Positions 2-33,516 are shown, numbered from the stretch's first letter. The stretch: DNA of 47,784 nt from Neomoorella mulderi (GCA_011375465.1 DRZV01000093.1:1-47784), one strand, 5' to 3'. Translations and numbers: made by a program. The notes: a model not told the origin generated them from the letters alone.

Positions 2-1006
2 GAGCCCCGTCTGGAGGTGCTCCTGATAGGTCCTGAGGTGGAGGGCCTGAAGGACTACCTCGGCGACGGGGTGAAGCACTATCCCACTGGTCCTGAGGAT
101 CGGGATATACACGAGGCTATGGAAAAGCTGTTGCAGGAGGGCACCATAGACGCGGCGGTGACCATGCACTATAACTTCCCCCTGGGTACCGCCACGGTGG
201 GGAGGGTGATCACGCCGGGATTGGGCCGGGAGATGTTCCTGGCCACCACCACCGGCACCATGGCCGCCGATAGGGTGGAGGCCATGGTGAAGGCAGCCAT
301 AGCGGGTATAGCCGCGGCTAAAGCCTGCGGCATCTCCAATCCCAGGGTAGGCATCCTCAACCTGGACGGGGCTCGGGCTTGCGAGCGGTCTCTCCAGCGT
401 TTGAAGGAGAGGGGATACAACATCACCTTTGCCGAATCCATCCGGAAAGACGGCGGCTTCATCATGCGGGGTAACGACCTCTTGGCTGGAGCGGCGGATG
501 TAATGGTTACCGACAGCTTAACGGGCAATGTGCTGATGAAGGTCTTCTCCGCCTACACCACGGGCGGGAATTATGAATCGCTGGGATACGGTTACGGTCC
601 GGGTCTAGGCGAGACCTACAACTACGTGGTATGCATAGTCTCCCGGGCCTCGGGAACCCCTGTGGTGGCCGGAGCTCTCCTTTATGCTGCCCAGGCTGCC
701 CGGGGCAAAGTGGTGGAGGTCTTTAAGAAGGAGATGCAGGCGGCTAAGGCTGCTGGTTTGGAGGAACTCTTTGTCAAAGAGGCGGCTCCCGAAGCAGCGG
801 CTGAAGTGACTCCACCCCCCGCCAAGGCGGTGGAGGAGGAGATACCGGGTATAGACGTCCTGGAACTGGAGAACGCGGTGAAGGCCCTGTGGGCTGCCGG
901 CATCTACGCCGAAAGCGGCATGGGCTGCACCGGCCCTGTGGCTCTGGTGGCCAGGGAAGACAAAGAGAGGGCCATAGAAATCTTGAAGGAAAAGGGCTAT
1001 CTCTAA
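2..1006 (+). CDS. PlsX/GrdD-like (phosphate acyltransferase fold) protein, 5' end outside window
   Basis: The frame is open from the window edge, with no stop upstream of the GTG at 17. Motifs VGILNLDG and DVMVTDSLTGNVLMK resemble PlsX and the PlsX-like glycine-reductase complex C alpha subunit. TAA stop at 1004-1006. Confidence 0.5.
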   Translation, partial: EPRLEVLLIGPEVEGLKDYLGDGVKHYPTGPEDRDIHEAMEKLLQEGTIDAAVTMHYNFPLGTATVGRVITPGLGREMFLATTTGTMAADRVEAMVKAAIAGIAAAKACGISNPRVGILNLDGARACERSLQRLKERGYNITFAESIRKDGGFIMRGNDLLAGAADVMVTDSLTGNVLMKVFSAYTTGGNYESLGYGYGPGLGETYNYVVCIVSRASGTPVVAGALLYAAQAARGKVVEVFKKEMQAAKAAGLEELFVKEAAPEAAAEVTPPPAKAVEEEIPGIDVLELENAVKALWAAGIYAESGMGCTGPVALVAREDKERAIEILKEKGYL

Positions 1007-3749: not shown

Positions 3750-3893
3750 TTATACCTTGTTCTGGTTCTTCTGTTGATGCACCGGGTTGCTTATAAAAGG
3801 CTCTAAAAGGCCCTTTATCACCCCTTGATACAGGGCCAGGAGAATGCTACCGCCTATCAAGGCGATAAGGAACAGGGCTATGCCTTTAGTCAT
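3750..3893 (-). CDS. Hypothetical 47-aa membrane peptide (below ORF-track cutoff)
   Basis: My translation is MTKGIALFLIALIGGSILLALYQGVIKGLLEPFISNPVHQQKNQNKV. RBS gggagg lies 6 nt upstream of the ATG at 3893. It has one hydrophobic helix followed by a polar tail. Confidence 0.35.
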   Translation of the reverse strand: MTKGIALFLIALIGGSILLALYQGVIKGLLEPFISNPVHQQKNQNKV

Positions 3894-4081: not shown

Positions 4082-5878
4082 GTGGGGATTTCCCTTTCTC
4101 CTGAAACGCTGGAAGAGATAAAGCTGAGGGCCGATATAGTGGACGTCATAGGCCGCTACGTACATCTAAAGAAGAGAGGCCGCAACTACGTAGCCCTCTG
4201 TCCCTTTCATCAGGAGAGGACCCCTTCCTTTACCGTGAGCCCGGAAAAACAGATGTTCTATTGCTTCGGCTGCGGCATAGGGGGCGATGTCTTCACCTTC
4301 CTCATGAAGTATGAGGGCTTGGATTTTGCGGAGGCGGCAGCCAAGCTGGCAGAGCTCACCGGGGTGGATTTAAAAAATCCGCCTTCTTCCCCGGCAGCCA
4401 GAAAAATCAAAGAGCGCCTATATGAATTGGGGGCCCTGGCGGCTGGCTTCTATTACCATATATTAAAATCTCAACCTGAGGGGAGGGCAGCCCGGGAATA
4501 CCTGGAGAAGAGAGGGGTCAAGGAAGAAGCCGTCCAAGCCTTCCAGCTGGGTTTTTCTCCCCCTGAAGGGAAGGCCCTGGTGCACCACCTCAGGGAAAAG
4601 GGGTTTTCCTATGGCGAGATGGAACAGGCAGGCCTCGTATCCTTATCCGGAAAGGAACCCCAGGACCGTTTCCGGGGCCGCATAATGTTTCCCATAAAGG
4701 ATGCCCAGGGCAGGGTGGTGGGTTTCGGGGGGCGCCTCCTGGGGGAGGGACAGCCCAAATATCTGAACTCACCAGAAGGCCCGCTTTTCCAAAAAGGCCG
4801 CCTGCTATACGGCCTTCACCTGGCCCTCCCTGAGATAAGGAAAAGGGAGCAGGTGGTGCTGGTGGAGGGCTATATGGACGTCATCGCCTGCTGGCAGCAA
4901 GGCATAAAGAACGCGGTGGCTTCCCTGGGAACCTCCCTCACCGATGACCAGGCCAGGGAAATGAAAAAACTTGCCCGAGAAGTGATAATAGCCTATGATA
5001 ATGATCTGGCTGGTCAAGCCGCCACCCTGAGAGGCCTGGAGCTGTTGTACCGCAGGGGTCTCCAGGTGAGGGTTTTGGAGCTGCCCCCGGGAACTGACCC
5101 TGACGATTTTTTAAAAAGTCAGGGGCCGGGAGCCTTTCAACTCCTGCTGCAGGAGAGCCTGCCCCTGATGGAGTTCTGCTTAAAAAGGCTCCTTTCCCAA
5201 CACGATCCTTCCCATCCCTTGGGGAAAAAGGCTATTGTGGAGGAACTCCTGCCCCACCTTGAGGCCATAAAGGATCCGGTGGAACAGGAGGCCTACGTCA
5301 GGCTTGTGAGCCGTCGGGTGGGCGTTTCGGAAAATGCCATCTACAGGGCCATGGCTTCAATGGAAACCCGGAGGGTGCACAGGACCCCGATCTCTCCTCC
5401 TAGAAAACCAGAAGAGGGCAAAAGGCAAGCCGGCAGCCTGGAAATGTTCTTGCTGAAGGCTTATATAGAAAGCCCGGTTCTGGCAGACGTTATAGACCAG
5501 AAATTAGGAGAAAAATGGGCAGAAGGTGTGGCAGAAGGGCTGATACCCTTTATAAGAGAGATAAGGAGAGAAAATCCGGAAATGGCAGGGGAGGGTTTGC
5601 TCGATTTGCTGAAGCACAGGGGAGAGAAGGAGGAATGGAAAGGGATTTTGGCTGCGATGGCTGTGGAAAGGGACAAGGGACCTCTGAAGGAGGAGATGGT
5701 GGAGAAGGCTATAAACCTCTTTAAAATAAAGGAGCTCCAGAAAAGGGAGAGGGAGGTCCGCAGGAGCTTAAGCCGTATGGCGGAAATCGGTCCCCCCAGC
5801 CTGGTGGAAGCGTTACAGAAGGAGATTTTCCAGCTTCAAGTTACCATCAATAAGCTGAAATGCGGAAAGGGGGGATAA
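4082..5878 (+). CDS. dnaG: DNA primase
   Basis: Zinc-finger region CPFHQERTPSFTVSPEKQMFYCFGCGIGGDVF and TOPRIM region VVLVEGYMDV...IIAYDNDLAG. I prefer the GTG at 4082 (RBS gggggaagg) over the TTG at 4046 used by the ORF track. Confidence 0.92.
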   Translation: MGISLSPETLEEIKLRADIVDVIGRYVHLKKRGRNYVALCPFHQERTPSFTVSPEKQMFYCFGCGIGGDVFTFLMKYEGLDFAEAAAKLAELTGVDLKNPPSSPAARKIKERLYELGALAAGFYYHILKSQPEGRAAREYLEKRGVKEEAVQAFQLGFSPPEGKALVHHLREKGFSYGEMEQAGLVSLSGKEPQDRFRGRIMFPIKDAQGRVVGFGGRLLGEGQPKYLNSPEGPLFQKGRLLYGLHLALPEIRKREQVVLVEGYMDVIACWQQGIKNAVASLGTSLTDDQAREMKKLAREVIIAYDNDLAGQAATLRGLELLYRRGLQVRVLELPPGTDPDDFLKSQGPGAFQLLLQESLPLMEFCLKRLLSQHDPSHPLGKKAIVEELLPHLEAIKDPVEQEAYVRLVSRRVGVSENAIYRAMASMETRRVHRTPISPPRKPEEGKRQAGSLEMFLLKAYIESPVLADVIDQKLGEKWAEGVAEGLIPFIREIRRENPEMAGEGLLDLLKHRGEKEEWKGILAAMAVERDKGPLKEEMVEKAINLFKIKELQKREREVRRSLSRMAEIGPPSLVEALQKEIFQLQVTINKLKCGKGG

Positions 5879-7089: not shown

Positions 7090-7164
7090 TCCTCGGTAGC
7101 TCAATGGTAGAGCGCCCGGCTGTTAACCGGGTGGTTGCAGGTTCGAGTCCTGCCCGAGGAGCCA
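7090..7164 (+). tRNA. tRNA-Asn (GTT)
   Basis: Acceptor stem TCCTCGG/CCGAGGA, anticodon loop CTGTTAA, T-loop GGTTCGAGTCC, and an encoded CCA. Confidence 0.93.
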
Positions 7165-7168
7165 GTAC

Positions 7169-7243
7169 GGGCCCATAGCTCAACGGTAGAGCAGCGGACT
7201 CATAATCCGTTGGTTCCAGGTTCGAATCCTGGTGGGCCCACCA
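7169..7243 (+). tRNA. tRNA-Met (CAT), elongator type; a lysidine-modified tRNA-Ile2 cannot be excluded
   Basis: Acceptor stem GGGCCCA/TGGGCCC (positions 1-72 are paired, so this is not an initiator), anticodon loop CTCATAA, T-loop GGTTCGAATCC, and an encoded CCA. Confidence 0.85.
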
Positions 7244-9204: not shown

Positions 9205-9578
9205 AGGGCCTTTGAGTAAACCGGATGGCCGCGGGTTGCCCTTCAAGGGCAGCCTGAGGAAAGTCCGAGCTCCACAGGGCAGGGTGCTGGATAACGTCCA
9301 GTGGGGGCGACCCCAAGGAAAGTGCCACAGAAACAGACCGCCTGGCGGTTTTTGAGGGCCGCCGGGTAAGGGTGGAAAGGTGAGGTAAGAGCTCACCAGC
9401 AGTTAGGCGACTAACTGGCTAGGCAAACCCCACCCGGAGCAAGACCGAATAGGGGGGCAGTCAAGGGGTGGCCCGCCCCGCCCCCGGGTAAGGTCGCTCG
9501 AGGTGCCAGGCAACTGGCATCCCAGATAGATGGCCATCCTCGACAGAACTCGGCTTACAGGTTTGCTCAGAGGCCCTT
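9205..9578 (+). ncRNA. rnpB: RNase P RNA, bacterial type A
   Basis: Universal P4 strands GAGGAAAGTCCGAGCTCC and ACAGAACTCGGCTTAC. GGTAAGGGTGGAAAGGTGAGGTAAGAGCTCACCAG is the type-A signature. P1 pairs agggcctttgagtaaacc (9205-9222) with ggtttgctcagaggccct (9560-9577), and P2 pairs ggatggcc with ggccatcc. The ends are approximate, within about 5 nt. Confidence 0.9.
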
Positions 9579-24792: not shown

Positions 24793-25908
24793 ATGGAATA
24801 CGATGTAATAATCTGTGGGGCTGGCCCCGCCGGCAGCACCTGCGCTCGGTTTTTGGCGGGCCAAGGAGCTGAGGTTTTGCTCCTGGATAAAGCCGTTTTT
24901 CCCCGTCCCAAAATCTGCGGAGGTGGCCTTACCAGGGGGGCGGTGAAGGAACTGCCGCCGGGTTGGGAAGGTTTAAAAGAAGGTGAAATTAGGCACCTGG
25001 TTTTTCTTTTTAAAAATGAAGAGCCGGTGGAGATAACCTTTACCCAGCCTGTGGTCTATACCGTCTCCCGAACCCTTTTGGACCATTGGCTGCTGGAGCA
25101 AGCCCTGGAAGCAGGAGCCAAATTGAGGGAGGGCTTTCGGGTGCTGGGCATAGAAGAGGATTCCAAGGGGACGAGGGTATGGGGCCCCAAGGGGGAAAGC
25201 CTGAGGGCCAGATATGTGGTGGGGGCCGACGGGGCCCACAGCGTTGTCCGCCGCCATTTAGATTTATCAATTGAAAGGGGTTTTTGCTTAAATCTGGAAG
25301 TTCCCAAGCCCCAGGTATTTTCCGGGGAAAAGATCTATTTTACCTACGGATACCTGCTAGGTTATGGGTGGATTTTCCCCAGGGGAGCTCACCTGAGCGT
25401 AGGTATGGGGGCTTTCTTTAATTGTAAAGTCAATTTTAAACCTTATCTAGAGAAATTTTGCCGCAAGGTGGGCATAGATCTCCCCTCAATTCCGTGGCAG
25501 GGGGCTTGTCTTTCTTTCCTTCCAGAAGGGGAAGTCCGGCTCCACACGGATAGGGTTCTGCTCATAGGAGAGGCTGCGGGTTTGGTAGACCCTTTCACCG
25601 GAGAAGGGATTTCCCATGCCCTGCGCAGCGCCCGATGGGCAGCCGGGATCTTGATGAAGGCCTTGAGGGGAGGGGGCGGGTTGGAAGAATATGGCGAAAA
25701 GCTGGGGAGGGAGATGCTCCGCCATATCAGGTATGCCCGCTTCATCGCCAGGACCGTTTATACCTGGGCTCCCTGGATACATAGGTTGCTGGGCCTGCGC
25801 CCCCAAATTGTAGCTAAACTCTTAGGGGTGATGGCGGAGGAAAACACCTATCTCGATCTGTGGGGATACCTGACCGAGAATTATCCCCTCTTTCGCCAGG
25901 CTGTTTGA
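24793..25908 (+). CDS. FAD-dependent oxidoreductase, geranylgeranyl reductase family
   Basis: The YDVIICGAGPAGSTCA dinucleotide-binding motif, KICGGGL, GADGAHS, and GEAAGLVDPFTGEGI. Confidence 0.8.
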   Translation: MEYDVIICGAGPAGSTCARFLAGQGAEVLLLDKAVFPRPKICGGGLTRGAVKELPPGWEGLKEGEIRHLVFLFKNEEPVEITFTQPVVYTVSRTLLDHWLLEQALEAGAKLREGFRVLGIEEDSKGTRVWGPKGESLRARYVVGADGAHSVVRRHLDLSIERGFCLNLEVPKPQVFSGEKIYFTYGYLLGYGWIFPRGAHLSVGMGAFFNCKVNFKPYLEKFCRKVGIDLPSIPWQGACLSFLPEGEVRLHTDRVLLIGEAAGLVDPFTGEGISHALRSARWAAGILMKALRGGGGLEEYGEKLGREMLRHIRYARFIARTVYTWAPWIHRLLGLRPQIVAKLLGVMAEENTYLDLWGYLTENYPLFRQAV

Positions 25909-26811
25909 TCAGCCCGGCAGCAGTTTTTCTAATATCCCCGCCAGAATCCCCGTGAAGAGCAGGAATACCAAGGACGAAGCGAGATTGAACAGGGTATGGA
26001 AGTGGGCTATCTGGAAGCCAGGATCCCGGCTTAAAAGGGGGAGGAGGGGCGCCAGGAGGAGCAGGAGGGGAAAGAACATCAGTGCTCCCAGGATATTAAC
26101 CAGCAGGTGGGCCAGGGCAGTCCTCTGGGCAGCCCGGGAAGAGAAGAGGGAGGCCAGGAGGCCGGTGGCGCAGGTGCCTATATTGGCCCCCAGGACCACG
26201 GCCAGGGCCGAAAGGGCGGAAAGGAATTTCTGTTCGAACAGGACCATGGTGATCCCGGTCACCACGCTGCTGGAATGGAGGCCAGCGGCCATGAAGATAC
26301 CGGCCAGGAAGCCCCTAATCGGATCCAGGTGGGGGAGGAGGAAAAGCCAGGCCTTGCTCTTCTGCCAGGCCTCCAGGGAGTTTTCCAGAAGCTCCAGGCT
26401 GAAAAACGTGACCTCCACCCCCACCAGGGCCAGACCGCTGGCTCTGCCCCTGGGCCACAGGATCAGGACAAGCCCCATCAGGATGAGGGGGCAAGCCCAT
26501 GCATGGAGGTCCAAAGCCATGAGCTGAACCGTGAGGCAAGTGCCCACATTGGCCCCCAGGATTATCCCCAAGCTCTGGTCAAAGCTTATCTAGCCCCCGT
26601 CCACCAGGCCTATGGTGAGGACGGTGACGGCTGTGCTGGACTGCACCAGGGCCGTGGCCAGGGTGCCCCAAAGAAAGGCGGCGTAGGGGTTGGACGCTGC
26701 TCTTTCTATTAAATGCCTCGCATGTCCTTTGGCCCCCTGCCCCAGGCCGTATTTTAAAAGCTGGAGCGAGGCCAGCAATAAGGATGTGCCCGCCAGCAAT
26801 TTATACAACAC
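25909..26811 (-). pseudogene. Na+/phosphate cotransporter-family (PF02690-like) membrane protein with an in-frame TAG
   Basis: The two ORF-track pieces are in the same frame and are joined by TAG (26590-26592): ...ALVQSSTAVTVLTIGLVDGG*ISFDQSLGIILGANVGTCLTV.... This is the conserved NaPi repeat, and the second repeat LGANIGTCATG is present. Confidence 0.7.
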
Positions 26812-26926: not shown

Positions 26927-27499
26927 ATGGAGAGGTTATCGCTGAGCCAAGCGCTGAGTTCTGGTCAAGCCTTTAAAGAGCGCATAGAGGCTGCCAGCGG
27001 AGTCACCTTGAGCCGCTGTTATCAATGCGGCAAGTGCACAGCTGGGTGTCCCGCCTCCTCCGGCATGGACTACGGGCCCAGGGGCATCATCCGCCTCCTT
27101 CAGTTGGGATTATATGAAAAGGCCATGAGAAGCAACACACCCTGGATTTGTGCGGGATGTCAGACATGCTACGTCCGTTGTCCCAGGGATATCGATATGC
27201 CCAAGCTGATGGAGGCGGTGCGGCAAGAAGCCTGCCGGCGGGGGATTGTGGGCGATAAAAAGACGGAGGTGTTCGACCGGGCGTTCCTGCGGAGCATCGA
27301 GAGGTTCGGTCGTCCCCATGAAGCCAGCATCATGGGGGAATATAACTTGTTGACGGGCCAGCCCTTCAAAGATATAATGTCCGGTCCTGCTATGCTGGCC
27401 AGGGGAAAACTAGCCCTTTTGCCCTCCCGCATCAAGAATATTTCAGAAATAAAAAAAATTTTCGCCCGGGTGAGGGCTAAAGGAGGGGAAGCCAGGTGA
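26927..27499 (+). CDS. hdrC: Heterodisulfide reductase subunit C-like (two 4Fe-4S motifs)
   Basis: CYQCGKCTAGCP and CAGCQTCYVRCP motifs, with a size and position typical of HdrC. Confidence 0.8.
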   Translation: MERLSLSQALSSGQAFKERIEAASGVTLSRCYQCGKCTAGCPASSGMDYGPRGIIRLLQLGLYEKAMRSNTPWICAGCQTCYVRCPRDIDMPKLMEAVRQEACRRGIVGDKKTEVFDRAFLRSIERFGRPHEASIMGEYNLLTGQPFKDIMSGPAMLARGKLALLPSRIKNISEIKKIFARVRAKGGEAR

Positions 27500-28377
27500 A
27501 ATATGCCTATTATCCCGGCTGCGCTCTGGAGACCACTGCCAAGGAGTACGATCACTCCACCAGGCTGGTGGCCCGTCACCTGGGAGTGGAGCTATGGGAA
27601 ATACCTGATTGGAACTGCTGTGGGGCTTCGGCAGCCCACCGGGTTGATCACCTTTTGGCCCTGGCCCTTCCTGCTCGGGTCCTGGCCCTGGCGGAAGAGC
27701 AGGGGCTGGATATAGTGGTGCCCTGCGCCGCCTGCTACAACCGCATGAAGGCGGTGGAGAAGGCGGTGCGGGAGTCGGAGGAGATGAGGAAAACCATCGA
27801 GGAGATAATCGAACGCAGTTACAAGGGCAGCGTCAGCGCCCGTTCTGTCCTGGACGTGCTGATAAACCAGGTGGGTTTGGAGAGCATCAAGGCCCAGGTG
27901 AAAAGGCCTCTGGCGGGGCTCAAACTGGCGGCCTATTATGGCTGCCTCTGGGTAAGGCCCCCCTGCATAACCGCCTTTGACGATCCCGAGGATCCCATGA
28001 CCATGGACCGCCTGGTGGAGGCCCTGGGGGGTGAAGCGGTTCCCTGGCCCTATAAAACCGAGTGCTGTGGAGCCAGCTTGCCCACCGCCCGCACCGACGT
28101 GGGGCTCGGGATGGTGTACCAAATACTGCGGCGGGCCCAGGAGGCTGGGGCTGTGGCCATAGTCACCGCCTGTCCCATATGCCATTTAAATCTGGATATG
28201 AGGCAGAAGCAGGTGGAGGCCGCCTTCCAGGAGGAGTTCAACCTCCCCATATTCTATTTCACCGAACTTATGGCCGTGGCTTTTGGATATTCACCCAAGG
28301 AGGCAGGGCTGACCACCCACTTCGTCAACCCCCTGCCCCTTTTAGAATCCAGCCTTGAGAGGAGGGAAACGGCGTGA
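27496..28377 (+). CDS. hdrB: Heterodisulfide reductase subunit B-like (two CCG domains)
   Basis: [30 protein letters not shown] and CPICH are duplicated CCG-domain signatures. The GTG start overlaps the hdrC stop. Confidence 0.85.
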
Positions 28378-30356
28378 AGCGGGTAGGCGTGTTCGTCTGC
28401 CACTGCGGCTCCAATATTGCCGGGGTGGTGGATGTAAAAAAGGTGGCAGAGGCAGCCAAAGAATTCCGGGACGTGGTCTTTGCCACCGATTACGAGTATA
28501 TGTGCTCTGATCCTGGACAGGAGCTCATCCGCAAGGCCATCAATGAGCACCAGCTCAACCGAGTGGTGGTGGCCTCCTGTTCCCCTCGGCTTCACGAGGA
28601 GACCTTCAGGAGATGCTGTGAGAGCGCGGGCCTAAACCCCTACCTCTTTGAGATGGCAAACCTCAGGGAACAGGTGGCCTGGTGCCACGCCAAGGATAAG
28701 GAGGCAGCCACCGCAAAGGCCATCGAACTGATCAGGGGTGCGGTGGCCAAGGTAAGGCGGAGCGCTCCTTTGACTCCCGGGGTAGTCCCCATCACCAAAA
28801 AGGCCCTGGTCATCGGCGGTGGCATAGCGGGGATCCAAGCTGCCCTGGATATTGCGGATGCCGGCTATAAAGTGACCCTGGTGGAAAGGGAGCCCACCAT
28901 AGGGGGAGCCATGGTAAAGCTGGATAAGACCTTCCCCACCCTGGACTGCTCTGCCTGAATAAGCACCCCCAAGATGGTTGCCGCGGCGCGGCATCCCAAT
29001 ATAGAGCTTTTGACTTACTCAGAAGTGGAAGACGTATCCGGTTATGTGGGCAATTTTGAAGTCACCATCAGGAAGAAGGCCCGGAAGGTGGACGCCACCA
29101 AATGCCGGGGATGCGGTGTGTGCTGGGAAAAATGTCCCACCAAAGTGGATAGCGAATTCGAACAGGGCCTGGCCAAGAGAAAGGCCATCTATATCCCCTT
29201 CGCCCAGGCCGTGCCGGCCATACCAGTGATAGATCAAGAGCACTGCCTGTATTTCACCAAGGGAAGGTGCGGTGTGTGCCAGAAGGTTTGCCCGGCCAAG
29301 GCCATAGACTACGAGCAACAGGACGAGATCATCAAGGACAAGTTCGGGGCAATAATAGTGGCCACGGGCTTTGAACTGTTCAACTGGAGGGAGGTTTACG
29401 GCGAATACGGTTATGGCAAGTATCCCGATGTGATCGACAGCATGCAATTTGAGCGGCTCAACGTTTCCTCCGGTCCCACCGGCGGCAAAATCCTCAGGCC
29501 TTCCGACGGCAGGGAGCCCAAAACGGTGGTATTCATAAAGTGTGTGGGTTCCCGGGATGAAGCCAAGGGTAAGAGCTACTGTTCCCGGGCCTGTTGCATG
29601 TACACCGCCAAACATGCTCATCAGGTTCTGGAAAAGATACCCGGAGCCCAGGTTATAGTCTTCTACATGGACATTCGCACCCCGGGCAAGGCCTACGAAG
29701 AATTCCTGGAGAGGACTATACACGAAGGGGCCATCTATGTAAGGGGGAGGGTAAGCAAGGTATTCCCGGAAGGGGATAAGCTCATAGTCAAGGGAGAAGA
29801 CACCCTATTGGGTCGCCCTGTAGAGGTGGCTGCCGATCTGGTGGTGGTGGTCCCTGCCATGGTGCCCAGCCGGGGATGGGATAAGCTGGCCAAAATGCTG
29901 GGGTTGCAGACAGATAAGGACGGCTTCTTCCAGGAGGCCCATCCCAAACTGAGGCCGGTGGAGACCTTCACCGCAGGGGTATTCCTGGCGGGCGCCTGTC
30001 AAGGACCTAAGGACATCCCCGATACGGTAGCCCAAGCCAGCGCGGCCGCCGCCAAAGCAATTCTGTTGCTCTCCAAGGACGAGATGGCTACCGAGCCCAT
30101 GGTGGCTTCTGTAGACCAGAGCGTGTGCGCCGGATGCGGTCTCTGCGTGGAGGTCTGCCCCTACAAGGCCATCTCCTTGACCACCATCGCCGAGAGGGTG
30201 GGCGGCAGAGAGATCACCAGGCAGGTGGCCACCGTCAATACCGGCCTCTGTCAGGGTTGCGGCAGCTGCGCCGTCACCTGCCCCTCCAGTGCCATGAATC
30301 TCAAGGGCTTCACCAATGAACAAATTCTGGCGGAGGTGGACGCCATATGTCTATAG
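28374..30356 (+). CDS. hdrA: Heterodisulfide reductase subunit A, with an in-frame UGA (probable selenocysteine) at 28956-28958
   Basis: [12 protein letters not shown], the FAD motif [32 protein letters not shown], the ferredoxin motifs [33 protein letters not shown] and [12 protein letters not shown]. The two ORF-track pieces are in the same frame. Confidence 0.85.
28976..28996 (+). promoter_or_regulatory. Candidate SECIS hairpin for the hdrA UGA
   Basis: ggttgccg / cggcatcc stem (one T-T mismatch) with loop cggcg, starting 20 nt after the U of the UGA. Confidence 0.45.
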
Positions 30357-30784
30357 CTGCCGAGGAGAAACAGTGGGAACCCAAAATAGTGGCCTTTTGC
30401 TGCCACTGGTGTTCCTATGCGGCTGCCGATCTGGCTGGTTTAAGCCGCCTGCAGTATCCTCCCAATGTGAGGATCATAAGGGTTCCCTGTTCCGGCAGGG
30501 TGAACCCCCAGTTCGTGCTGAGGGCTTTCCAGCGGGGGGCCGATGGGGTGCTGGTGGCGGGGTGACACCCCGGAGAATGCCACTATGGTAGTGGCAATTA
30601 CTATGCCCGCCGGCGCCTCTTGCTTCTGCAAAAGGTTTTACAATTCATGGGTCTGGAGCCGGAAAGGTTTCAAGTCAAGTGGATATCGGGTTCAGAAGGA
30701 CCCCGGTTCGCTCAAGCTATCCAGCAGATGACCGAACAGGTTAAGGCTCTAGGACCCAATAGAAAGTTGAGGGATCGGGTATGA
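30347..30784 (+). CDS. mvhD: MvhD/FlxD-like iron-sulfur subunit, with an in-frame UGA (probable selenocysteine) at 30563-30565
   Basis: [28 protein letters not shown], and [29 protein letters not shown]. The frame stays open to TGA 30782-30784, which overlaps the next ATG (ATGA). The ORF track shows only the first 72 aa. Confidence 0.8.
30578..30596 (+). promoter_or_regulatory. Candidate SECIS hairpin for the mvhD UGA
   Basis: tgccacta / tagtggca 8-bp stem with loop tgg, starting 15 nt after the U of the UGA. It can be extended with a bulge (aat...aatt). Confidence 0.5.
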
Positions 30785-31680
30785 GCCTGCAGGACAAGAT
30801 GAGGGAAAGGGCAAGGGAATTGCTGGAGAGCGGTGCGGTGAACATGGTCATAGGCTGGGAAAAGGGCACGTTTTGGTACCTTTCCCCGCCGGCCTTCATC
30901 ACCACTCCCGAAGAGGCGGATCGCCTGGTTTGGGACGAGTTTTGCCTGAACAACCTCTCTAAATATCTTCTGGACTACAGAAACACAGACGATAAAATCG
31001 CCCTTTTTGTAAAGGGATGCGACTCCAGAAACGTGGTGCGGCTTTTACAGGATAACCAGTTCCCCCGGGAGAGGCTTTACCTTTTAGGCATAAAGTGCCC
31101 GGGCCTCAAGGATAGCCGGGCAGCTAGCCTGCTAGGAGAGGAGAAGAGGGCAGAACTGCCCTTGGCCCCCAAGTGTGTGGGCTGTACCCATCCCGAGCCG
31201 GTAATCTATGACGAGCTCCTGGAGGCGGGAGTCTCAGGGGATCTGGGGTCTCCGGAGAAGCGCTTTGAAGATGTGGAGAAGATCGAGGCCATGTCCTACG
31301 ATGAGAGATACGCCTTCTGGGTCAATGCCTACGCCCGTTGCATCCGCTGTTATGCTTGTCGCAACGTGTGTCCCGCTTGCGATTGCCGGGAATGCATCTT
31401 CGACCGCACCCAGACCGGCTGGTGCGGTAAGCAGATGGGGCTTACCCAGAACATGTTCTTTGCCATCACCCGGGCCCTGCACGTGGCTGGCCGATGCACC
31501 GAATGCGGCGAATGCGAGAGGGTTTGTCCCCAGCGTTTACCCATAATGACCCTCAACCGTAAGATCATCAAGGAATTAAACGCCCTGTTCGGGCCCTATG
31601 AAGCAGGTGTCAGCTTAGAGGCCAAGCCCCCGGTGGTGGAATACCGGCCCGACGATCCGGACTTTGAAGAAAGGAGGTAG
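30781..31680 (+). CDS. Iron-sulfur protein, FlxC-like (FrhB/HydB-related)
   Basis: CIRCYACRNVCPACDC and CTECGECERVCP cluster motifs. It lies immediately after mvhD. Confidence 0.6.
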   Translation: MSLQDKMRERARELLESGAVNMVIGWEKGTFWYLSPPAFITTPEEADRLVWDEFCLNNLSKYLLDYRNTDDKIALFVKGCDSRNVVRLLQDNQFPRERLYLLGIKCPGLKDSRAASLLGEEKRAELPLAPKCVGCTHPEPVIYDELLEAGVSGDLGSPEKRFEDVEKIEAMSYDERYAFWVNAYARCIRCYACRNVCPACDCRECIFDRTQTGWCGKQMGLTQNMFFAITRALHVAGRCTECGECERVCPQRLPIMTLNRKIIKELNALFGPYEAGVSLEAKPPVVEYRPDDPDFEERR

Positions 31681-31684
31681 GGGG

Positions 31685-32686
31685 ATGTACAAGCTGGCTA
31701 CGGAAAAGCTGCCGGAACTGCTGCAGTGTTGGTCCCAGGGGGCTACGGTCTACGTGCCCCAGAAGGTGGGGGAAGTCACCCTTTTCCGCCCCTTTAAGGG
31801 TCAAGGAGATCTGGCCCTGGGAGAAGGCAATACCCTGGAGCCCCCTAAGGATCTCTTCTTCCCCCGTACGGAAAAGCTTTATGATTACTGGGCCAGCGGC
31901 AAAGAGGCCAGGTTGGAGCCTGTGGAGCTGCATCCGGATAGGGCCGTGCTGGTGGGGGTGCGCTCCTGTGATGCCCGCAGCTTCCTGCTCCTGGATCAGG
32001 TCTTTCTCACCAGGGGTTATGTAGATGAGTTCTATAAAAAGCGCAGGGAAAACACCGCTGTCGTGGCCCTGGCCTGTACCCAGGCGGCCCCCACCTGCTT
32101 CTGCACCTCCTTTGGTATAGACCCGGGGAGAGCAGAAGGGGTGGATGTGCAGATGTGGCCTGTGCCAGGAGGCTATCTCCTGGAGGCCCTTACCCCCAGG
32201 GGGGAAGAGATGCTGAAGCAGGCTTCCGGCCTCTTGGCCCCTGCGGAGGGAGAGAAGATACCGGCCCCTGCCCAGCCTTCCCTCCAGGTGGAACTGGAAG
32301 GGTTGGTGGAAAAACTGCAGAAGATGTTCGACCATCCTTACTGGGGGGAACTAAGCCGCAAGTGTCTGGGCTGCGCCATCTGCACCTATCTCTGCCCCAC
32401 CTGTCACTGTTTTGATATAGACTGCGAGACAATAGAGACTTCCGGTTACAGGTTCCGCTGCTGGGACACCTGCCTTTTTGCCCATTACACCCTGATGGCA
32501 GGGGGCCGTAATCCCCGGCCCACCAGGAAAGAAAGGCTCCGCAACCGCCTCCTCCACAAGCTTCAATACTTTGTGGAGCGTTATGGCCAGTTTGCCTGCG
32601 TGGGATGCGGTCGCTGCCTTGAGCTCTGCCCGGTGAATGTGGATATCACCAAGGTCATCCGGGACGTAAAGGAGGTGAGCTTATAA
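31685..32686 (+). CDS. Iron-sulfur protein, FlxB-like (AsrA / sulfhydrogenase beta-like)
   Basis: CLGCAICTYLCPTCHC and CVGCGRCLELCP motifs. I prefer the ATG at 31685 after RBS gaaaggagg over the upstream TTG in the ORF track. Confidence 0.65.
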   Translation: MYKLATEKLPELLQCWSQGATVYVPQKVGEVTLFRPFKGQGDLALGEGNTLEPPKDLFFPRTEKLYDYWASGKEARLEPVELHPDRAVLVGVRSCDARSFLLLDQVFLTRGYVDEFYKKRRENTAVVALACTQAAPTCFCTSFGIDPGRAEGVDVQMWPVPGGYLLEALTPRGEEMLKQASGLLAPAEGEKIPAPAQPSLQVELEGLVEKLQKMFDHPYWGELSRKCLGCAICTYLCPTCHCFDIDCETIETSGYRFRCWDTCLFAHYTLMAGGRNPRPTRKERLRNRLLHKLQYFVERYGQFACVGCGRCLELCPVNVDITKVIRDVKEVSL

Positions 32687-33516
32687 TGGCAGATGTGGCC
32701 ACTGGCAATCCCCTTGTCCCCATGCCAGCCCGTATAGTCAAAATCGTGGAGGAAACCCCCGACACCAAGACCTTCTATATATCCACCGATCAGGGCAAGC
32801 CCTTCACCCCTAAACCGGGACAGTGCGTCATGCTCTCCCTTTTGGACGTGGGGGAGGGTATGTTTTCGGTAACCTCCCAGGGGCCGGATCACCTGGAGAT
32901 CGCCATCAGGAAGGTGGGGGTGCTCACCACTGCCCTCCATGAAGCAGAGGTGGGCCAGGTGGTGGGCATAAGGGGGCCCTATGGCAATGGTTTTCCTGTA
33001 GAGGAGATGAAGGGCAAGGATATGCTCTTCATAGCCGGCGGCATAGGTCTGGCTCCGGTGCGCTCGGTCATCAACTACTGTATAGAGCACCGGGAAGACT
33101 ATGGACACCTGTGGATCATCTACGGCGCCCGGACCCCCACCGACCTCTGTTTCAAAGAGGATCTGTTCAACAACTGGCCCAAAGTGGAAAACTGCCGGGT
33201 GGACGTCACTGTGGACCGGGCCGATGAAAAGTGGACGGGGCCGGTGGGATTTGTCCCTCCCTTCGTGGAGCAGCTAAAGCCTTCCCCTGAAAACAGGATC
33301 GCCATTGTCTGCGGTCCCCCCATAATGATCAAACTGGTTCTGGAAACCCTGGCCAAGTTGGGGTATAATGATGAGCAGATAATAACGACCCTGGAGATGC
33401 GCATGAAATGCGGCATAGGTAAGTGTGGCCGGTGCAATCTGGGCAGCAAATATATATGCTTGGATGGGCCGGTCTTCACCTTTGCCCAGTTAAAGCTCTT
33501 ACCCAGCGAATACTGA
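32686..33516 (+). CDS. FAD/NAD(P)-binding oxidoreductase with C-terminal 2Fe-2S, FlxA-like (PyrK/AsrB/HydG-like)
   Basis: GQCVMLS, RGPYGNGF, the NAD(P) motif FIAGGIGLAPV, and C-terminal CGIGKCGRCNLG. TAATG overlaps the preceding gene. Confidence 0.75.
   Translation: MADVATGNPLVPMPARIVKIVEETPDTKTFYISTDQGKPFTPKPGQCVMLSLLDVGEGMFSVTSQGPDHLEIAIRKVGVLTTALHEAEVGQVVGIRGPYGNGFPVEEMKGKDMLFIAGGIGLAPVRSVINYCIEHREDYGHLWIIYGARTPTDLCFKEDLFNNWPKVENCRVDVTVDRADEKWTGPVGFVPPFVEQLKPSPENRIAIVCGPPIMIKLVLETLAKLGYNDEQIITTLEMRMKCGIGKCGRCNLGSKYICLDGPVFTFAQLKLLPSEY

Follow-up and report, generated by a model that had tools for sequence, protein, structure and literature searches.

An in-frame UGA in an mvhD/flxD-like gene of a Moorellaceae-like bacterium is very probably translated as selenocysteine with the help of a downstream hairpin

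The stretch of DNA analyzed here (47,784 nucleotides, called the window in the following) contains an open reading frame of 72 amino acids (30347..30565), which is closed by a TGA at 30563-30565. No further stop interrupts this frame over the following 72 codons; the frame is closed by a second TGA (30782-30784), which shares bases with the ATG at 30781 that opens the downstream gene (ATGA). This arrangement raises the question of whether the first TGA terminates a short protein or whether it is translated as part of a longer one. A preliminary description of the locus had already listed it as the second in-frame UGA of the region, located in an MvhD/FlxD-like subunit, and the coordinates it gave for the short frame, the open extension and the ATGA overlap were confirmed. 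We conclude, at a probability of roughly 93%, that the gene product is a selenoprotein of full length from the MvhD/FrhD/VhuD (FlpD) family, which would serve a cytoplasmic electron-transfer complex similar to HdrABC-FlxABCD as its FlxD-type subunit and in which the UGA would be decoded as selenocysteine (Sec) with hairpin help. As far as the decoding step alone is concerned, sequence comparison indicates that the UGA is almost certainly read as Sec with the assistance of the hairpin that follows it. The features involved are the following.

30347..30784, plus strand: mvhD/flxD-like gene of 145 codons, including one in-frame UGA (predicted Sec73); assigned by its match to PF02662 (FlpD)
30563..30565, plus strand: UGA codon for residue 73, at the first Cys of G-C-H-P-G-x-C-H-Y; placed by alignment of homologues
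30578..30596, plus strand: putative bacterial SECIS-type hairpin within the coding sequence, with an 8-bp stem and the loop UGG; core of the minimum-free-energy fold, with comparative evidence

MvhD-like proteins are small [2Fe-2S] subunits that dock on HdrA. When the two halves of the reading frame were searched separately against Pfam, the 72 residues upstream of the TGA matched positions 1-59 of the FlpD profile (PF02662, described by Pfam as 'methyl-viologen-reducing hydrogenase delta subunit') with E=6e-31, and the 72 residues downstream, taken alone, matched positions 61-123 with E=2.5e-20. Thus, the TGA occupies exactly one profile position within a single FlpD domain, and the match of the downstream half, for which MvhD similarity in a profile search had been anticipated, indicates that the open frame is no accident. 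The fused protein, with Cys written for U, covered positions 1-123 of 123 (E=1e-59). It also matched the MvhD chains of solved Hdr complexes (5odc_D with E=1.8e-52, 7bkb_F, 8rvu_F and 9sw2_D), and these chains aligned without gaps across the UGA site at an offset of 6, so that U73 corresponds to Cys67. With the NCBIfam model for VhuD (NF045873) we obtained 155.7 bits, which misses the curated cutoff of 215. Separate translation of the C-terminal half was also considered and was rejected: the sole internal start is a TTG at 30620, and the product would lack the C-H-Y motif.

Full-length homologues numbered in the thousands when a large protein collection was searched; the best of them shared 65-75% identical residues and included proteins of Ammonifex degensii, Heliobacterium and MAGs of Moorellaceae/Bacillota. 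For the alignment of Cys-type proteins, 22 full-length homologues (62-72% identical to the window protein) were employed. Here, we found that the TGA column is an invariant Cys in 22/22 sequences (G72-C73-H74-P75-G76-x-C78-H79-Y80) and that C19, C22 and C48 are also invariant. The UGA therefore stands in place of the first Cys of the MvhD/VhuD motif G-C-H-x-G-x-C-H-Y, just as the preliminary description had it.

Genes with TGA at this codon were collected by scanning one genome per species with the DNA pattern GGN TGA CAY CCN GGN GAN TGY CAY TAY (G-TGA-H-P-G-[DE]-C-H-Y). The pattern was present at no fewer than 120 loci in bacterial genomes, with 121 matches among those listed, and 119 of these listed matches were full-length MvhD-like genes in which the frame is open and conserved both before and after the TGA. 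The C-terminal half is thus retained in orthologues of either type, the 22 Cys-type proteins being full length as well. At two loci from long-read MAGs (L108 and L109), one half of the TGA-type mvhD gene was out of frame, which is probably due to indel errors or to real pseudogenes. The hosts of the listed TGA-type loci were mostly Desulfobacterota; others were Syntrophomonadaceae, Desulforudis, Desulfofundulus, Desulfovirgula, Pelotomaculum, Gelria, Dehalococcoidia, Cloacimonadota and further groups. The closest among them came from a Moorellaceae MAG (L111), with about 70% DNA identity over hdrA-mvhD-flxCBA. In a Candidatus Delongbacteria MAG, a single contig (JAFGVM010000066.1; L005/L059) carried three TGA-type mvhD paralogues within about 14 kb.

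A single base change is sufficient to convert a Cys codon into TGA, and gene prediction divided the gene in every assembly: the public gene calls in 4/4 of them consist of a 72-aa FlpD fragment and a split hdrA. Such observations would be expected if a nonsense mutation (TGC/TGT to TGA) or an error of sequencing or assembly had cut MvhD down to 72 residues and had left the downstream half to decay. This explanation is at odds with the finding that the codon-73 TGA and an identical hairpin are kept in 4/4 independent assemblies of the organism (ENA, a Logan SRA assembly and two JGI metagenomes; 99.6-99.9% identity) and that no fewer than 120 genomes have a TGA at this codon. Moreover, the downstream half is intact, as judged from its Pfam match, and its comparison with TGA-type relatives yielded dN values of 0.24-0.41 with saturated dS, a saturation that permits no proper dN/dS ratio and only the statement that dN is far below dS. 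These values indicate that the C-terminal half is under purifying selection. Taken together, these data make a pseudogene or an error very improbable.

The hairpin consists of UGCCACUA (30578-30585) and UAGUGGCA (30589-30596), which form a perfect 8-bp stem closed by the loop TGG. Its stem begins 15 nt after the U, the spacer between UGA and stem is 12 nt and the distance from the UGA to the loop is 20 nt. When the 63 nt after the UGA were folded, this hairpin formed the core of the minimum-free-energy structure. Stem, loop and distance agree with the preliminary description, and its remark that the stem is extendable with a bulge turned out to be weakly true: A-U and G-U pairs can be added past an A/A mismatch, and this extension is clearer in relatives with GGU at Gly76. 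At 30584-30605 of the window an alternative hairpin can be drawn, the 9-bp stem of which is rich in A-U and G-U (UAUGGUAGU / AUUACUAUG, loop GGCA); it overlaps the 3' arm of the SECIS candidate and is not the minimum-free-energy structure.

Taken alone, the folding energy of the hairpin is not exceptional (z=-0.24 against dinucleotide shuffles, z=-0.58 against synonymous recodings), and in place of such z-scores we relied on a stem-length test and on the comparison of Sec-type with Cys-type genes. An uninterrupted 8-bp Watson-Crick stem was obtained in only 7/5000 synonymous recodings that followed the window's own codon usage. This stem requires AGT at Ser82, which is the rarest Ser codon of the window genes (8/237). 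Rfam scans, run with gathering and with E-value thresholds, returned chance matches only and no SECIS-like family. Bacterial SECIS elements of the E. coli fdhF and Moorella fdhA type are hairpins inside the reading frame, which begin some 11-12 nt past the UGA, expose a G in the apical loop and are recognized by SelB. The geometry predicted here (12-nt spacer, 20 nt to the loop, G in the loop) fits this bacterial in-frame layout. bSECISearch is said to demand a stem-loop in the ORF directly 3' of the UGA with its apical loop roughly 16-37 nt from the UGA, and the value of 20 nt lies within this range.

For the comparison of gene types we used 109 unique TGA-type sequences from the matches listed and 108 unique Cys-type sequences, in which TGY replaces TGA and the pattern is otherwise equal. 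Either of two fixed registers held a full hairpin in 82/109 listed TGA-type sequences but in only 1/108 Cys-type sequences. The first register (class A, UGCCACUA-NNN-UAGUGGCA at +15..+33) is that of the window and was found with 8/8 pairs in 21 of the listed unique TGA-type sequences; the second (class B, AUUACCU-GGA-AGGUAAU at +19..+35) was found with 7/7 pairs in 61 of them. Similarly, the longest stem measured at least 7 bp in 96/109 listed TGA-type sequences as compared with 8/108 of the Cys-type. When stability was expressed relative to synonymous recodings over the 48 nt from the codon on, a mean z of -1.22 was calculated for the listed TGA-type sequences and of -0.06 for the Cys-type set (Mann-Whitney p=8e-11), so that extra stability was confined to the TGA-type set.

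The codons involved follow the same division. For His79-Tyr80, the listed TGA-type genes use either CAC-TAT (class A) or CAT-TAC (class B), and other combinations were seen in 0/109, whereas each of the four possible combinations is common among Cys-type genes. Gly83-Asn84 is written GGT-AAT or GGC-AAY in 104/109 listed TGA-type sequences and with many codons in Cys-type genes, and Ser82 is AGT in 25/32 listed TGA-type but in 1/21 Cys-type sequences. By the hairpin counts and the codon choices, the hairpin is specific to TGA-type genes and is built through constrained synonymous codons. A Sec-specific hairpin after the codon is a further argument against a decaying gene. The preliminary description had proposed to test the hairpin for covariation. 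In the class A helix of 31 sequences, which were pre-selected for pairing and share the invariant 5' arm TGC-CAC-TA, no pair was altered on both sides, because this arm encodes the invariant Cys-His-Tyr; strict covariation was thus not seen, and for such a set the count of paired changes carries no information, but the hairpin is specific to TGA-type genes.

Across codons 78-84 of the listed loci (L001-L120), class A and class B behave as mutually exclusive SECIS solutions on the shared Cys-His-Tyr...Gly-Asn codons. Among these loci, class A (CAC-TAT ... AGT-GGC) is mostly a feature of Bacillota-like lineages and class B (CAT-TAC ... GGT-AAT), the loop of which is displaced by 3 nt, mostly one of Desulfobacterota. 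Rarer variants among the listed loci include a long loop in Smithella and a 5-bp stem in Desulfarculus.

The gene upstream of mvhD contains an in-frame UGA of its own.

28374..30356, plus strand: hdrA, with an in-frame UGA at 28956-28958 in the motif D-C-S-A-U-I; from translation
28976..28996, plus strand: predicted hairpin after the hdrA UGA, GG.UGCCGC-GGC-GCGGCA.CC; from folding

In five relatives (L033, L036, L080, L094 and L111) the hdrA hairpin reads UGCUGC...GCAGCA, which represents a compensatory change of C-G to U-A. When the listed TGA-type mvhD loci and the window were inspected for the adjacent HdrA site, it was a TGA at 46/60 sites where the motif was found; two adjacent Sec subunits therefore are the rule and not an oddity.

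Additional UGA codons were found on a contig (L245) that matches the window with 99.88% identity over an overlap of 13.6 kb (16 mismatches; window position 1 corresponds to position 7345 of L245). Its grdA gene carries a TGA at 3878, 3.5 kb upstream of the window start, in the motif E-C-F-V-U-T-A-A-G-A-M-D, and its grdB gene carries one at 5286, 2.1 kb upstream of the window start, in the motif P-S-T-U-G-T-C. GrdA and GrdB belong to families with listed Sec motifs, CxxU and UxxC, respectively (PMC9312934). The two genes form part of a glycine reductase cluster (grdX, trxB, trx, grdE, grdA, grdB, grdC, grdD) at 365-8350 of L245, just upstream of the window, and the first ORF of the window (17..1006, Pfam FA_synthesis) corresponds to the 3' part of a grdD-like gene and not to plsX. 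The UGA-bearing hdrA, grdA and grdB genes indicate that the organism very likely uses selenocysteine.

The Sec machinery was not directly observed in the window and some 17 kb of flanking DNA: Pfam scans of the window ORFs (47.8 kb) and the gene tables of about 17 kb of extra flank revealed no selA, selB or selD, and ARAGORN found no tRNA-Sec (selC) in the window and the fetched flanks. This would be compatible with selenium-free read-through by a near-cognate Cys or Trp tRNA, or with a working truncated N-terminal fragment, the hairpin then being a generic element for read-through or pausing. However, TGA also occupies the canonical Sec positions of hdrA in the window and of grdA and grdB on L245, GrdA is a listed selenoprotein with a CxxU motif (PMC9312934), and the position of the hairpin, with its 12-nt spacer and the G in its loop, fits the bacterial SECIS layout. 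As for the truncated fragment, a piece of 72 residues would be without two of the five invariant Cys. We consider these alternatives very unlikely, and translation of the UGA as Sec remains the preferred reading.

About 35 kb of sequence contain four in-frame UGA codons, those of hdrA and mvhD in the window and those of grdA and grdB on L245, which might also be expected if UGA had been reassigned as a sense codon throughout the genome of the organism. Against such a reassignment, TGA is the stop of 9/25 long Pfam-supported ORFs of the window, including that of mvhD itself (30782-30784), which indicates that the code is not reassigned, and all four in-frame UGA codons fall on known Sec/Cys positions of known selenoprotein families. 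The probability of a reassigned code is, in our opinion, negligible.

The selenoprotein gene proposed here lies in a row of genes with the order hdrCBA-flxDCBA (26927-33516), the remaining members of which are given below.

26927-27499, plus strand: hdrC; Pfam Fer4 dicluster domains
27496-28377, plus strand: hdrB; two Pfam CCG domains
30781-31680, plus strand: flxC-like gene for an Fe-S protein; Pfam/NCBIfam
31664-32686, plus strand: flxB-like gene for a sulfhydrogenase-beta/AsrA-like Fe-S protein; Fer4_22, sulfhydrogenase beta-like (Pfam/NCBIfam)
32686-33516, plus strand: flxA-like gene for a FAD/NAD(P)-binding Fe-S protein; NAD_binding_1 and DHODB_Fe-S_bind, sulfhydrogenase gamma/AsrB-like

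A FlxC-like neighbor was present in 91/120 listed TGA-type loci and the full set of HdrA, FlxC, FlxB and FlxA neighbors in 44/120, each locus being represented by at most 8 kb of sequence. No [NiFe] hydrogenase genes (mvhA/mvhG, vhuA/G/U) were detected beside mvhD, where Flx-type genes are found instead. For this reason, and because the score is below the VhuD cutoff, we filed the protein as FlxD/MvhD-type and not as VhuD. The domains of the Flx module suggest an NADH-linked function.

Several other observations concern the window outside of this operon. On the minus strand at 25909-26811, a Na/Pi-cotransporter-like gene is divided between two ORFs of 220 aa and 73 aa in different frames; the split recurs in the assemblies L121 and L122, L124 has a single call of 245 aa, and the split may reflect a frameshift or strain variation. 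The FAD-binding (geranylgeranyl-reductase-like) gene at 24793-25908 is one ORF of 371 aa in the window and is called as pieces of 64 aa and 321 aa in L121/L122 (4012-5128), two assemblies that are nearly identical. The regions 7090-7243 and 9213-9573 of the window hold tRNA-Asn(GTT) and tRNA-Met(CAT) downstream of dnaG-rpoD and a bacterial class A RNase P RNA (324 bits).

As for the mechanism, the UGA at 30563-30565 would be decoded by Sec-tRNA(Sec) delivered by SelB, and SelB would be recruited by the in-frame mRNA hairpin (30578-30596) 12 nt past the UGA. The resulting Sec73 would substitute for the Cys equivalent to Cys67 of Methanothermobacter MvhD and would directly precede the His found close to the Cys/Sec pair of HdrA, en route to the bifurcating FAD. 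Cryo-EM placed this HdrA Cys pair between the MvhD cluster and the bifurcating FAD (PMC13580544, PMC13518236). The HdrA pair Cys202/Cys205 holds an unknown ligand, at or close to which His68 and Asp71 of MvhD are located (PMC13580544), and these two MvhD residues correspond to H74 and E77 of the window protein. The equivalent HdrA pair of M. maripaludis includes Sec197 (PMC13518236), and the UGA of the window hdrA falls in the C-x-x-U pair that corresponds to Cys202/Cys205. When Cys16 is set aside from the five invariant Cys, Cys67/U73 is left by elimination as one of the four [2Fe-2S] ligands; this assignment as a cluster ligand, which we infer from published statements and not from inspected coordinates, would place the MvhD residue at the cluster. 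Both Sec residues of the operon would then probably lie on the stretch between MvhD's [2Fe-2S] cluster and HdrA's bifurcating flavin.

It is conceivable, although we regard it as doubtful, that the two Sec residues of the operon are not independent of each other: Sec73 of FlxD might act as a selenolate cluster ligand beside His74, and bacteria might repeatedly have selected a selenium-based relay across the gap between cluster and FAD. The co-occurrence of the UGA codons in mvhD and HdrA (46/60 listed sites) can be cited for this idea. If it were true, the two interchangeable SECIS hairpins on the shared Cys-His-Tyr codons would record independent or diverging solutions.

For annotation, the consequence is that the 72-aa 'FlpD fragment' and the split hdrA of every public assembly of the organism would represent two full-length selenoproteins, which is why its Hdr-Flx complex ought to be regarded as intact and dependent on selenium. 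From a methodological point of view, contrasting the codon use of Sec-type and Cys-type genes offers a simple way of recognizing a SECIS where invariant residues in one arm preclude covariation. Compared with what is known of the family, the advance is incremental and consists in the Bacillota/Moorellaceae-like host with its Flx context, in clear evidence that two alternative SECIS registers make use of the same conserved codons, and in the placement of both Sec residues, as proposed above, at the gap between cluster and flavin.

Among the known systems, the SECIS elements of E. coli fdhF and Moorella fdhA resemble the window hairpin in that they lie within the ORF about 11-12 nt after the UGA and have a G in the apical loop. 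The window element differs from them by its short loop of 3 nt (UGG) and by having no obvious bulged U, and its binding by SelB is putative. The gene neighborhood can be compared with FlxABCD-HdrABC of Desulfovibrio vulgaris, which, according to Ramos et al. 2015 as cited in PMC6687939, is an NADH dehydrogenase/heterodisulfide reductase. The domains are alike (hdrA, hdrB, hdrC, an MvhD-like FlxD, two Fe-S proteins and a FAD/NAD(P)-binding FlxA-like protein), whereas the order in the window is hdrCBA-flxDCBA, FlxD and HdrA both contain UGA, and the function suggested for the window genes derives from domains only.

The archaeal counterpart is VhuD of Methanococcales and Methanopyrus, a selenoprotein subunit of the F420-non-reducing hydrogenase (PMC4989117, PMC2933860, PMC13518236), which has a CxxU motif (PMC13188914) and two Sec residues separated by 50 codons (PMC4989117). 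Because the PDB entry for VhuD of M. maripaludis (9sw2_D) gives Cys in its sequence, the archaeal Sec positions were taken from the literature; they fit positions 16 and 67, so that Sec73 of the window probably corresponds to the second site. The window protein is homologous to VhuD (about 50% identical to the solved MvhD/VhuD chains) and has a Sec-HdrA as putative partner, which makes the analogy to VhuD and HdrA of selenium-using methanogens, drawn in the preliminary description, an apt one. In contrast to archaeal VhuD with its two Sec, the window protein would contain one, and its C-x-x-C site at residue 22 stays Cys; its putative SECIS is a bacterial in-frame hairpin, whereas that of archaeal VhuD is a 3'-UTR element; and the window has no mvhA/mvhG beside the gene, which is followed by Flx-type genes.

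The closest parallels are bacterial. MvhD/FrhD/VhuD (PF02662) is counted among the experimentally supported prokaryotic selenoprotein families (PMC9312934, PMC13188914). Desulfobacterium autotrophicum HRM2 possesses four Sec-mvhD genes (mvhD1, 2, 3, 5) beside Sec-hdrA/hdrL (PMC2702500), and selenoprotein operons of the type frhA-frhD-hdrA occur in Deltaproteobacteria (PMC13188914). Bacterial Sec-MvhD next to Sec-HdrA has thus been described since at least 2009, and the present locus is a correct detection in an already known bacterial and archaeal selenoprotein family. With these bacterial cases it shares the FlpD domain, the in-frame placement of the SECIS candidate and the pairing with a Sec-HdrA, and with the loci of Desulfobacterium, Desulfosarcina and Desulfoluna the UGA for Cys in G-U-H-P-G-x-C-H-Y. 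It differs from the cases described by its Bacillota/Moorellaceae-like host, and the SECIS candidate belongs to class A (UGCCACUA-NNN-UAGUGGCA), whereas most Desulfobacterota employ class B (AUUACC-UGGAA-GGUAAU), which is shifted by 3-4 nt and uses other synonymous His/Tyr codons.
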